Under the pieces are notes generated by a model, which searched no databases, had not been told where the DNA came from, and saw nothing but the letters and a program-made list of their open reading frames with translations. DNA of 64,000 bases, from contig CAJNYD010000027.1 of NCBI GenBank assembly GCA_905331295.1, forward strand, positions 1 through 64,000, written 5' to 3'. This DNA is from Rotaria socialis (taxonomy: Eukaryota). Every line of letters starts with the position of its first letter. Within the stretch, counting starts at the first letter, position 1. Both the position numbers and the translations under genes were made by a program. Below, piece after piece: positions 3,016 through 58,473 of this stretch.

Positions 3016-3268
3016 NNNNNNNNNNNNNNNNNNNNNNNNNNNNNNNNNNNNNNNNNNNNNNNNNNNNNNNNNNNNNNNNNNNNNNNNNNNNNNNNNNNNN
3101 NNNNNNNNNNNNNNNNNNNNNNNNNNNNNNNNNNNNNNNNNNNNNNNNNNNNNNNNNNNNNNNNNNNNNNNNNNNNNNNNNNNNNNNNNNNNNNNNNNNN
3201 NNNNNNNNNNNNNNNNNNNNNNNNNNNNNNNNNNNNNNNNNNNNNNNNNNNNNNNNNNNNNNNNNNNN
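3016..3268. other. Assembly gap (N run)
   Basis: Run of N. Confidence 1.
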
Positions 3269-44713: not shown

Positions 44714-44813
44714 NNNNNNNNNNNNNNNNNNNNNNNNNNNNNNNNNNNNNNNNNNNNNNNNNNNNNNNNNNNNNNNNNNNNNNNNNNNNNNNNNNNNNNN
44801 NNNNNNNNNNNNN
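44714..44813. other. Assembly gap (N run)
   Basis: Run of 100 N. Confidence 1.
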
Positions 44814-52409: not shown

Positions 52410-53478
52410 TTCGGTTTCTGTGTACTTTGACTGCTTTTTTTTTCATTCTTTTTAAAACACTTAAAAATATGAATTCTATTGGCAATAGAACTGTACATAG
52501 AAACACTAAAATATTCAGTAGACGAGTAGACGACGAATGAGGACAAAGCAAAAAAAATTCTTAATTCCATAAAATTTATTTCTCTGCGGTTTCAAGGTGG
52601 TTTCTGTAAAAAAAAACTCTATGCTCGACCTTTCGACTATTCATTGTCAAAAACAAACTAGCATTTTTTTAAAAATATCTGACATCTCTTTAGAATTGAA
52701 ATATAAATCAAATCAATAAACTCATACCGCTATTCGGTACTTGATTTTATCACCCACTGAAAATAAGAGAAACAAGAAATTTAGCTTACGGATTTGAATT
52801 TTTACTTCAAAAATATTCACATTCTCATGAAAATAATCTAAAAAATGATTTATGATACAATACATGTATAGCAATTTAGAAGTATCCTGACATTTTTTCT
52901 TGCTAAATTCACAACATTAAAGCATGTATAAGTAGCGACTGAAAGAAGTCAAGCAGGATCATTTAAAATATCAATACTAAATCAAAAAATCGAAATATGC
53001 ACATTTTCAGATAACAAGTATTGTCAGGTGTAAGAAAAAAGAAATTCAACGATAGCGAACTTTTCTTAGTCTTAAAAGTCATAAAAACGATGCACCTATC
53101 TTTTTAAAATATGACTTGTTCATTAATATCCTACGACTACTATGAGAATACGAAGCAAAATGTCTGTAATTCATGTTACTATTTTTTATACTAATTCAAA
53201 GATGTTGATTTTTTCCCATCATCTCTCTTTTTATTTTGCAAGTAGAAAAACTAAGCCAATTCACTTTTAATAATCATGTTTTTTTAAATGTGATTCTCTA
53301 ATAGTATATTGATTTTATTATTATTCAAATGTTCTTGAAAAACAGCAGTCCTCAACTCTTATGATGTAATTAAACAATTGAATGTAAAAATACTTGTAAA
53401 CATATCAAAGTCTAAATCAGCACCTACTAATAAAAAATACTTGATTACAAGAGATGATGATAGTAAGAAAAGAAGTTT

Positions 53479-54290: not shown

Positions 54291-54738
54291 ATGTCAAGTC
54301 AATTGTTTAGTGTTAATCGATGAAATAAAATCTAATGTTCGGATTAATAGAGCATAACAGATCTTTAATATATCGAATGATGATGATTGATCAACGCGAG
54401 GAGGTTCATCATAATTTAAAGATCTGGATGTTGTTGAACTGATTGATGAAATAAATCGAGTATTTGTTAATGTATTATTAAAATCATCAAGAATTTATTC
54501 TTTTAGAGTATCTGAATTTGAAAGATTTCAAAATAAAATCATGATTTTTCGATCTATTATCATTATAGATAAATCGAAATTTAAACAGGCGAATGGTGAA
54601 ATCATTTGCTTCATTACTAAATCATTACTAAATGTAATTTTTGTATTTAAAGAATTTGTGAAAATAGATCGAACTTGATATTTTATTTTATTTTTTATTT
54701 TATAAGAAGAGGGTTCCCGTTTCCCGAAGGAGACGGGA

Positions 54739-54929
54739 GTGGACCGAACTCGACAGCACTGCAGTGTCAAGGCGATTCGTGGCACAGGTCCGAGTGAACC
54801 CGGGTGATCTTGGCCGATGTCCAAAAATCCGCTTGAAAGAGCCTGGCCCCAATGGGACCAGCGCCGGCTTTCAAGCCGACGAGAACAGATACTACATTTT
54901 GATCTTAGTCGAAAAGGCCGAGAAGCGAT
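54739..54929 (-). ncRNA. U2: U2 snRNA, full length (~190 nt), variant
   Basis: Reverse strand begins ATCGCTTCTCGGCCTTTTCGACTAAGATCAAAATGTAGTATCTGTTCT. Stems IIa (cgtcggc/gccggcg) and IIb (ctggtccc/ggggccag), IIc complementarity (gcttgaaa/tttcaagc), Sm site GGATTTTTGG, stem IV loop CTGCAGTGC. Confidence 0.93.
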
Positions 54930-55070
54930 GCCTATCTTGGAGGATAGGAAAGCACGAAATTGCGGCTCCAATGACACATCGCTCACTCCAAGGCTCGCAA
55001 AGAACGGAAAAAATGTGAAACGCGTAAGGACAGAAGAAATATCGTGCCCCATATCTCAACAAGAAAAATT
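54930..55070. promoter_or_regulatory. Putative bidirectional snRNA-type promoter between U2 and SL RNA
   Basis: AATTTCGTGC (54961-54952, - strand) lies at -32..-23 of U2. AATATCGTGC (55038-55047) lies at -33..-24 of SL. Both are followed by TATC and CAAGA. Confidence 0.65.
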
Positions 55071-55175
55071 GCTTATTACAACTTACCAAGAGGTAAATGA
55101 TCTTTACTGATCAAATACATGTTGCGATGACGAAATCGTGTGGGTTGATGGTAACATCGACCTACCAGAGCAACA
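55071..55175 (+). ncRNA. Spliced leader (SL) RNA gene, copy 1
   Basis: GCTTATTACAACTTACCAAGAG matches 22 nt of the bdelloid SL exon as I recall it (GGCTTATTACAACTTACCAAGAG) and is followed directly by a GTAAAT donor. Hairpins tgatc/gatca, tgttgc/gcaaca and gtgggttgatg-GTAA-catcgacctac. 3' end inferred. Confidence 0.88.
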
Positions 55176-55520
55176 CTTTTCAATTAAATAAAAAGAAAAA
55201 AAGACAATGATTCATTTTTGAAATAATGAAGAATAAACCATTCATAAAAGTAATAGAATTACATTTGTTTTCAATTGTTCGACTCAATACATTTACAATC
55301 AAACGACGTACTGCTTATCGATGTGAGAAGAAAAAAGTTCTAGAACATCAAAATTTATAAAATGTTAATGATAGAAGCAATCTCGATATTCATAAACAGC
55401 TGCTAATTTCTTTTTTTTAAAGAGACAATAATCGGTATTTTTATTGAAAATGATCTCACTGATTTATTAGTTACAATTGAATAATGTTGAGCCAAATAAG
55501 ATCATACTTTGATAGGTCGA

Positions 55521-55638
55521 GGCCGATGTCCAAAAACTTGCTTGAAAGAGCCTGGCCCCAATGGGACCAGCGCCGGCTTTCAAACCGACGAGAACAGATA
55601 CTACACTTTGATCTTAGCCGAAAAGGCCGAGAAGCGAT
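55521..55638 (-). pseudogene. U2: 3'-truncated U2 snRNA copy (first 118 nt)
   Basis: Near-canonical 5' end ATCGCTTCTCGGCCTTTTCGGCTAAGATCAAAGTGTAGTATCTGTTCT. Sm site altered to AAGTTTTTGG. Stems III and IV are removed by the duplication breakpoint. Confidence 0.88.
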
Positions 55639-55781
55639 GCCTATCTTGGAGGGTAGGGAAAGCACGAAATTGCGGCTGCAATGACACATCGCTCACTCCA
55701 AGGCTCGCACAGAACAGGAAAAAAAATGAAACGCGTAAGGGCAGAAGAAATATCGTGCCCCACATCTCAACGAGAAAAATT

Positions 55782-55886
55782 GCTTATTACAACTTACCAA
55801 GAGGTAAATGATCTTTACTGATCAAATACATGTTGCGATGACGAAATCGTGTGGGTTGATGGTAACATCGACCTGCCAGAGCAACA
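55782..55886 (+). ncRNA. Spliced leader (SL) RNA gene, copy 2
   Basis: Same leader and GT donor as copy 1. The one difference I see (cctac vs cctgc) changes a U-A pair to U-G and keeps the hairpin. Confidence 0.88.
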
Positions 55887-58473
55887 CTTTTCAATTAAAT
55901 AAAAAGAAAAAAAGACAATGATTCATTTTTGAAATAATGAAGAATAAACCATTCATAAAAGTAATAGAATTACATTTGTTTTCAACTGTTCGACTCAATA
56001 CATTTACAATCAAACGACATACTGCTTATCGATTTGGGAAGAGAAAGGTTCCAGAACATCAAAACTTATAAAATGTTAATGATAGAAGCAATCTCGATAT
56101 TCATAAACAGCTGCTAATTTCTTTTTTTTAAGAGCAATAATCGATATTTTTATTGAAAATGATCTCACTGATTTATTAGTTACAATTGAATAATGTTGAG
56201 TCAAATACGATCATACTTTGATAGGTCGAAGTGTAATGTGATCGGTACAATTGTTTTAAGCTGACTCTTATAAAAACAAATGCTTTTTCTGATGGCAACG
56301 ATGAAGTACCTATTTCGATAGTTGTCAGAGATCATTCTGATTTAAATCGAGTAATATACGAATTTATTGATGGTGGTTGTTACAAGTTATTTCGCTGAAC
56401 AAAATACAATATGAATACCGTGAACTTTCGATACTTTCGTCAATAGACACATATAAGTATCAACTGGAAAATTTGTTTAAAATCCCAACTATACATAAAG
56501 CTTAGAACGGTAGTCAGAAAAATCATTGTATAAATCACAATTTATTAGACTCGCAATACTGCGTGTTTACTTTTATCATAACCTATGATCGATAAGTCAA
56601 ATATTATTTTCATAGAGTAATACTGGTGGTAACACTATCTAACTTCAAGCCCAACGGATGTGAAATATGTTATAGGTTTTTCACGGTTGTCAAGTTTTCG
56701 TGAAAATGGATAACACAATCAGATAAAAAAAACCTTCGTCTTGCTTACTGTTTATAAATGATCAACATTTTCATTCGCAAATTCGAATCCTTAGTTTTTT
56801 TTTCTATAACGAAAATTTGAATAAAAAGATTCAGCAGAATTTGATTCGAACGCAGCTTATATTGCTCAGATCTTATAAATACAAAACTTCGTGAAACTAA
56901 ACAACGTGTAATAGTTCGATTAAGACAATTGGCTAGGCAAAGTTTCTAGTCACTTAAATAATTGTATATTTTAGAAAAAAACAAAGGAATGAAATTTGCT
57001 TGAAGTGATCTAAATTGAAAGATAAAATATATCTCTACTCATAGCTTGAAATCAATGGAGTGTTGAAATACAATCATGAAAACGATGTATCTACCTTTTT
57101 AAAATATGAAATACTTTCAGACACATTCATTAATACTAATTCAAAGATATTAATATTTTACCCGTTGTCTGTTTTTCCTATTGTGTAAGTCGAGAACCTA
57201 CAAGCCACCTGAATTTTAATAATCATGTTTGTTAAAATGTGATTCTCTAATTCTAAGTATGTGATTTTCTGTTAGGATGGCATATTGATTATATTCAGTT
57301 CTTATTCAGATTCTCAGAGGAAAAAAACACGGTAATTTCATGAAACAATCAAATGTCTGTGATATTTTTATGATAAATTCGAGTTACAATTTATTACTCA
57401 AAATTATGTGTTACACAAATATAATTTAATTCATACATCATAGAAAAAGTATCGAGTGACTTTACGAAGATTGTGTCTGGTGAGTGTCTCTTCTACGATT
57501 AAACACAATTAAATATTTTCGATGTAATTTTGAAAATCAAATGAAAACTCTGTTTTAAATTTATAATAGAACAGAATTCAATTGATTCATTTCACTGCAT
57601 ACTTTGAAACGAAGACAAGTTGTTGCTCTTTAAATTCACTCTGGAATGCAATTATCTTTTGAAGTATAAGATATTTTACCACCTATTTCCAATGCTAGAA
57701 ATTCTAAAATAAGTATGACGCAAGATGGCGATGCTCTGCGAATTAACAAGTTGTTACTTTTGAGCGACTAAGTTTCGAGATCAGGAATATTTCGATATAA
57801 ATGAAGAATGTTCTCCTATTTGCTTTGTGAATAAATTTCAAATTATTATCTAGGATCAAAGAATCTAACCTACTCATTTTTTCATGAAAGTTCGTTATTT
57901 AGTGTTTTAACTTCACCGACAACAATATTTATCGTTTGGTAACTTTCTTGCACTTGCTAACTCTAATTTATGTATCATTAAAACAATTATTTGTTGAAAA
58001 GTATCAGTTACATAATATTCTGGGAATTGAGCTTGACAAACTTAAACAGATTCGCTTATTTACGTTGATCTAATAATTGTTATAAAAATGATAATCGAAC
58101 AAGATGTATTTTAAAAATTCTAACCAACAACTATTTCATCTTAATAAGATGATCTTATTAAAATAATATATTTTTACCCTGGAAACGGAGACCAAAAAAC
58201 TTTTCGGAATACTGCTTCCAGAATTCGATGGAAAATCACCGAATCAGACTGTTTCCTGCCGTACATATTTGACCCGGAACCCATACACTCAAGATGTGAT
58301 ACTTAGAATATTTTTATAGTAGCTTTTAGCTTTGTATTAACCGATGAATGAAGGGAATGTGTGTTTCAACCAAATATATTAGTTTCTACTATTTTTCAAA
58401 TTGTCATAATTTTAACGAAATTTAGACAATAAAGTCACCAGCAATAATGGGTATTGTCGTAAATCCTATGTAG

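Follow-up and report, generated by a model that had tools for sequence, protein, structure and literature searches.

In the 64-kb window, by which we mean the whole stretch of DNA analysed here, a U2 snRNA gene and an SL RNA gene lie head to head, and the same 10-mer, AATWTCGTGC, precedes both of them on opposite strands. Does this word represent the snRNA proximal sequence element (PSE) of bdelloids, as the initial annotation had proposed, or is it part of a larger promoter? The genes and repeat units of the locus are as follows:

54734..54929, minus strand: U2 snRNA gene, copy a (U2a), full length, Rfam RF00004 with 121.7 bits, presumed start at 54929
55521..55638, minus strand: U2 copy b (U2b), nt 1-118 only, cut off at the duplication junction
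55071..55176, plus strand: SL RNA gene a, start presumed, 3' end approximate
55782..55887, plus strand: SL RNA gene b, 3' end approximate
54812..56229, no strand: tandem duplication of two ~710 bp units, 54812-55520 and 55521-56229 (repeat families D1-D4)

In SL gene a the templated exon measures 22 nt (55071-55092); behind it come a GT donor and an intron part of ~84 nt. The exon equals nt 2-23 of the 23-nt Rotifera leader as listed in PMC3795323 (Table 1 of that source). Since the first G of the published leader is not templated (position -1 is T in 60/65 of the SL clusters described below), numbering starts at the templated G. Leader exon, GT donor and an RNA of about the size given for rotifer SL RNA in PMC1925144 (~100 nt) are all present in the window. 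The body of gene a was aligned with 59 other SL bodies without gaps of its own, and gene b differs from gene a at 1 position in 115 nt. A search of Rfam with the SL RNA gave no match at E up to 10. Among the 60 distinct bodies the intron part (55093-55176 in the window) lacks a canonical Sm site, AT4-6G being present in 4/60; the first hairpin has a six-nt loop that varies strongly, and 59/60 keep the 3' motif of the last stem. Short diverged direct repeats (53079-53319 and 57074-57295; D5-D7 and D10), ~3.95-4.0 kb apart, flank the U2/SL cluster. Runs of N, which are assembly gaps, are located at 2173-2420, 3016-3268 and 44714-44813, none of them near the promoters. Scanning 9 of the 14 long ORFs of the window returned no Pfam match.

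The positions originally reported for the 10-mer were reproduced: it is located at -32..-23 of U2a (AATTTCGTGC, 54952-54961, minus strand) and at -33..-24 of SL gene a on the opposite strand (AATATCGTGC, 55038-55047, plus strand). The 64 kb contain 4 exact matches compared with 0.30 expected, a number reached in 0/100 shuffles, but these four are two pairs from a single tandem duplication of ~710 bp. Shuffling the 70-nt upstream regions of U2 and SL produced a 9/10 match at positions no more than 2 nt apart in 9/3000 trials. Both 10-mers are indeed unchanged in the duplicate, where the U2 10-mer is shifted to -33; this is weak evidence, since it would happen by chance with P=0.20 given 10 differences in 141 nt. 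The accessory words GTGA (-57/-56), TATC (-17/-19) and CAAGA (-10/-11) stand in the first copy where they had been placed, but in the duplicate TATC is gone on both sides and GTGA and CAAGA are gone on the SL side.

For comparison, public metagenomes were searched for the SL exon with a GT directly behind it, which yielded 203 matches in 109 loci. With matches close to contig ends excluded, 98 distinct full-length 70-nt SL upstream regions were obtained, which come from 47 loci and group into 65 clusters when 80% identity is applied. U2 genes in the same 109 loci provided 14 distinct upstream regions in 11 clusters. Judged by the SL exon alone, these loci are presumably bdelloid. The 65 and 11 clusters do not amount to independent species, since they come from few samples, re-assemblies and paralogues with common ancestry, and the U2 sample may be unrepresentative because every U2 gene was found via its linkage to SL genes. 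No U1, U4, U5 or U6 was detected by Rfam in the window or in the 30 of the 109 metagenome loci scanned with it, nor by short motifs across all 109 loci; among Rfam families, U2 alone was detected near SL genes in the loci scanned. Viral contigs contained neither the SL nor the U2 pattern. The sole SL-pattern match in prokaryote genomes (L110) lies near a 16S gene on a bacterial contig and was dismissed as a chance match.

In this sample the 10-mer does not behave as the defining bdelloid element. Absence of the motif upstream of other snRNA genes had been named in advance as the result that would speak against it, and for the U2 genes of other loci this is what we found: the 10-mer, even with one mismatch allowed, occurs at the equivalent position in 0/14 distinct U2 upstream regions and is therefore not common to different snRNA classes at the same position. 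Among SL clusters it is exact in 1/65 and within one mismatch in 6/65. The accessory words were discarded as elements as well: GTGA is exact in only 7/65 SL clusters, TATC in only 1/65 and CAAGA in 2/65, CGAGA being the consensus (20/65).

Conservation among the 65 SL 70-mers instead peaks in two blocks, at -51..-40 (0.58-1.62 bits per column) and at -34..-24 (0.61-1.40 bits per column); at -70..-59 it amounts to 0.04-0.31 bits per column. The first block, box A, reads ATGTGTAAAGAC and is exact in 19/65 clusters and within two mismatches in 44/65. The second, box B, reads AGATGTCGTGC in SL genes, with GATGTCGTGC exact in 16/65 and within two mismatches in 45/65. Column frequencies also give a start-proximal consensus CGAGAAAAGTT, a purine tract with a TT end. 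In leave-one-out scoring, 54/65 SL clusters reached a matrix score of at least 8 for box A, leaving 11/65 below it, and 48/65 reached it for box B; random 70-mers do so in 0.22% and 0.14% of cases, respectively. In all promoters in which both boxes are strong (44/44) the offset from box A to box B is 17 nt, which corresponds to a fixed spacing of 5 nt.

Box A is shared by the two gene classes. The SL-trained box A matrix scored at least 8 at -50/-51 in 10/11 U2 clusters (SL versus U2, p=0.15), and 6 of its 12 columns are invariant across all 11. Box B differs by class: the SL-trained matrix reached 8 in only 1/11 U2 clusters (SL versus U2, p=6e-6), the CG core is present in 51/65 SL compared with 2/11 U2 clusters, 5/11 U2 clusters carry TATAA at -30, and only RATRT is left as a common core of SL and U2. 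A scan of all loci and the window with the matrices gave 126 matches, 105 of them at SL genes, 10 at U2 genes and 11 elsewhere. Five of these 11 have both boxes, at least 2 of which precede recognisably decayed SL copies, and six have box A alone, about the chance level in 1 Mb; no new gene class behind the promoter emerged from the loci and window scanned. In the window the elements are placed as follows:

55020..55031, plus strand, -51..-40: box A of SL gene a, ACGCGTAAGGAC, matrix score 14.2, background p 7.8e-6
55037..55047, plus strand, -34..-24: box B of SL gene a, contains AATATCGTGC, matrix score 12.4
55060..55070, plus strand: start-proximal purine tract with TT end of SL gene a (the CAAGA of the initial annotation), consensus CGAGAAAAGTT
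54968..54979, minus strand, -50..-39: box A of U2a, ATGTGTCATTGG, 3' half decayed
54952..54962, minus strand, -33..-23: box B of U2a, contains AATTTCGTGC, SL-type spelling, SL-trained score 9.0
55678..55689, minus strand, -51..-40: box A of U2b, ATGTGTCATTGC, matrix score 3.3
55662..55672, minus strand, -34..-24: box B of U2b, carries the 10-mer, score 9.0
55731..55742, plus strand, -51..-40: box A of SL gene b, ACGCGTAAGGGC, matrix score 11.0
55748..55758, plus strand, -34..-24: box B of SL gene b, carries the 10-mer, score 12.4

The 10-mer falls into box B. At this position AATWT is found in 7/11 U2 but 2/65 SL clusters and CGTGC in 22/65 SL but 1/11 U2 clusters, so the 10-mer joins a U2-type first half to an SL-type second half. 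Other SL promoters, seen at loose ends of contigs from public runs of the closest relatives, carry AATTTCGTGC, GATTTCGTAC or GATTACGTAC in the same register; on these grounds the 10-mer is a real spelling of box B in the lineage of the window. The earlier interpretation is upheld in that the motif belongs to an snRNA-type promoter common to SL and U2 genes in a bdelloid-type genome, but the proximal element would be box A, 17 nt further upstream. Box A had been missed, and only the 10-mer seen, because box A is partly decayed in front of the U2 gene of this locus.

Position bears on the same question. In the human Pol II snRNA complex, as described in PMC9758055, SNAPc contacts -57..-35 and TBP sits on -30..-25 of a TATA-less promoter, with SNAPc serving as a ruler for the start site. 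The 10-mer at -33..-23 overlaps the TBP site and lies outside the SNAPc footprint, which is the wrong position for a PSE. That AATWTCGTGC is itself the PSE common to snRNA and SL genes could be argued from the four exact matches in register in the window and from the same or a near-identical 10-mer in SL promoters of close relatives, so that it may be the common spelling of the lineage. Given the counts in other loci (0/14 U2 upstream regions within one mismatch, 1/65 SL clusters exact), its position and the damaged appearance of both U2 copies that carry it, we regard this claim as very improbable and, across bdelloid-type loci, as largely refuted.

Box A is the better candidate. It lies within the human SNAPc footprint (-51..-40 in SL, -50..-39 in U2; PMC9758055), is common to SL and U2 genes and keeps a fixed distance from the start. 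Box B overlaps the TBP site at about -30..-25 at a fixed spacing from box A; it does not keep one consensus across classes, as Pol II snRNA genes do in Drosophila. Position, sharing and fixed spacing suggest that box A is likely a PSE/PSEA bound by SNAPc and that box B is likely a TBP-contact box.

The insect arrangement is similar in several respects. According to PMC1761439, insect Pol II snRNA promoters consist of an essential PSEA and a weaker PSEB, the loss of which costs 2- to 8-fold; two boxes at fixed spacing, a strong upstream box kept across classes and a weaker box near TBP are common to both systems. The insect PSEA is longer, however (~21 bp compared with ~12 bp for box A), and its centre at -50 to -55 is somewhat further from the start than that of box A at about -45 (PMC1761439). 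Fly Pol II genes also have one common PSEB, whereas the spelling of box B, SL-type or TATA-like, goes with the class. The sequences of boxes A and B we take to be unlike the fly consensus. Vertebrate Pol II snRNA genes lack a conserved second box, and Pol III is selected there by a TATA box (PMC1761439); the rotifer-type loci differ in having TATAA at -30 in 5/11 U2 clusters. SL2 and snRNA genes of C. elegans have a common two-part PSE (PSE/UM1) with sub-motifs 5 bp apart (PMC2527325), so that one promoter type likewise serves SL RNA and snRNA genes. In C. elegans, however, both sub-motifs belong to one 21-bp core, whereas boxes A and B span 28 bp and the second box varies between SL and U2.

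The worm arrangement leads to the main rival of a two-box promoter, namely a single long SNAPc site that would comprise boxes A and B (28 bp, -51..-24), lie closer to the start and have the 10-mer as one half. Such a site would resemble the C. elegans PSE with its two sub-motifs. Box B, however, overlaps -30..-25, which TBP has to occupy in the human complex (PMC9758055), TATAA stands at -30 in 5/11 U2 clusters and the SL-type box is lacking in 10/11 U2 clusters, and we consider a single site quite unlikely.

We therefore favor, as the probable explanation, that the spacer contains two back-to-back two-box promoters in which box A likely binds SNAPc and box B likely seats TBP for Pol II. Factor binding, polymerase and start sites are what we infer here from the location of the boxes and by analogy with human, fly and worm, comparing two gene classes (SL and U2). 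Bound to box A, SNAPc would place TFIIA, TFIIB and TBP on box B in the manner of a ruler, this placement would set the start ~40 nt downstream, and each gene of a head-to-head pair would be driven by its own promoter.

The layout also accounts for the mirror symmetry reported for the motif. The 10-mers do lie on opposite strands, but the spacer is no palindrome: only 26 of its 141 positions match the reverse complement, and a single dyad-symmetric site was rejected. The mirror arises because two promoters stand back to back, the usual layout of SL genes. Enough flank was available for 95 distinct SL upstream regions, of which 79 are head to head with an SL-like gene and 14 have no partner; 76 of the 79 SL/SL spacers, with both members of a pair counted, measure 131-137 nt, with a mode of 134. 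A U2 gene at 133 nt takes the place of the partner in 2/95, and L009 contains a further U2/SL pair with a 137 nt spacer. In the window the U2/SL spacer is 141 nt long, and the outer edges of its two boxes A are 40 nt apart. A U2 gene and an SL gene are neighbors separated by ~0.13-0.56 kb, in head-to-head or tandem orientation, in 15 loci, some of them redundant (L001, L004, L005, L008, L009, L015, L020, L034, L043, L044, L051, L066, L069, L074 and L102). Four loci (L046, L053, L094 and L100) have SL-like partner genes with an altered exon and a conserved body opposite canonical SL genes; from their sequence these could possibly be minor leader variants.

We also assessed the state of the U2 copies. 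U2a scores 121.7 bits in Rfam compared with 137-142 bits for intact relatives. At 8 positions it departs from every one of the 6 full-length relatives; all 8 changes are transitions, G21A and G33A among them. The sites of G21A and G33A we take to belong to the U2/U6 helix Ib region and to the stretch immediately preceding the branch-point pairing sequence. Among the 40 best-supported differences examined, two of these 8 variants (54755 and 54810) are contradicted by all or nearly all contigs in four public runs. Position -1 of U2a is C, which is T in 11/11 other U2 clusters. Its box A scores -4.1 and has at least 4 mismatches to the consensus, yet is the top position in the 70-mer. Besides its truncation, U2b has three changes next to the Sm site, at nt 100-102. 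The U2 half of the promoter pair, in which box A is damaged and box B is of the SL type, is likely decaying, and both U2 copies of the window are probably non-functional.

This state raises the question whether the match between U2 and SL is a relic: a U2 gene would have moved into one half of a head-to-head SL/SL pair, retained the SL-type box B and then become a pseudogene, in which case the 10-mer match would be uninformative on U2 transcription. The damaged box A and the C at -1 (T in 11/11 others) fit such a history. The upstream region of U2a is also nearer to SL upstream regions (best 32/54, mean 22.1) than to those of other U2 genes (best 24, mean 19.5), although a best of 65 against a best of 11 is a biased comparison. 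Against a relic, an intact U2 gene in L001 has an SL-type box B as well, and the U2 promoter of the duplicate is spanned by contigs of two other organisms, which means that this genome is not alone in having the arrangement. We regard the relic as possible, if doubtful; it is compatible with two back-to-back two-box promoters and concerns only the history of the copy in the window.

Further features of the U2 genes were observed. In 11/11 genes with enough flank (the window, L001, L005, L008, L009, L015, L034, L044, L051, L066 and L069) stem IV of U2 is immediately followed by a predicted hairpin of 9-10 bp, which mostly has a UUCG-type loop and shows paired changes in L044 and L069. In the window it was mapped to:

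54716..54737, minus strand: extra predicted hairpin at the 3' end of U2a, running past the end of the Rfam model

The predicted hairpin may be a 3' extension of U2 or a signal for 3'-end formation. Divergent U2 genes occur in L044, L051 and L069, with stem I altered, box A perfect and box B TATA-like and rich in A/T, which suggests a putatively expressed variant class.

A more far-reaching proposal is that bdelloid SL genes form a dedicated module, with the shared SNAPc box and an SL-specific, CG-containing second box that would be served by its own factor or by a SNAPc variant, and with head-to-head pairs whose spacer of 131-137 nt would be under selection; many U2 genes with a true TATA at -30 would then stay with Pol II, against the vertebrate rule that TATA means Pol III. 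We put this forward tentatively and consider it rather unlikely.

The architecture is of a known kind. In the literature searched, to which most subscription journals and supplements did not belong, we found no published description of a rotifer snRNA promoter; an earlier published note is possible. The boxes provide a usable and testable snRNA/SL promoter consensus for a phylum for which none was found described, and more than half of the mRNAs in the lineage are trans-spliced (PMC1925144). Upstream elements have guided the finding of plant telomerase RNAs (PMC12133305), and box A could similarly guide the search for unannotated small-RNA genes in bdelloid genomes. Promoters with box A could also serve transgenes or guide RNAs, and the class-specific box B makes the choice of polymerase testable once U6 is added.
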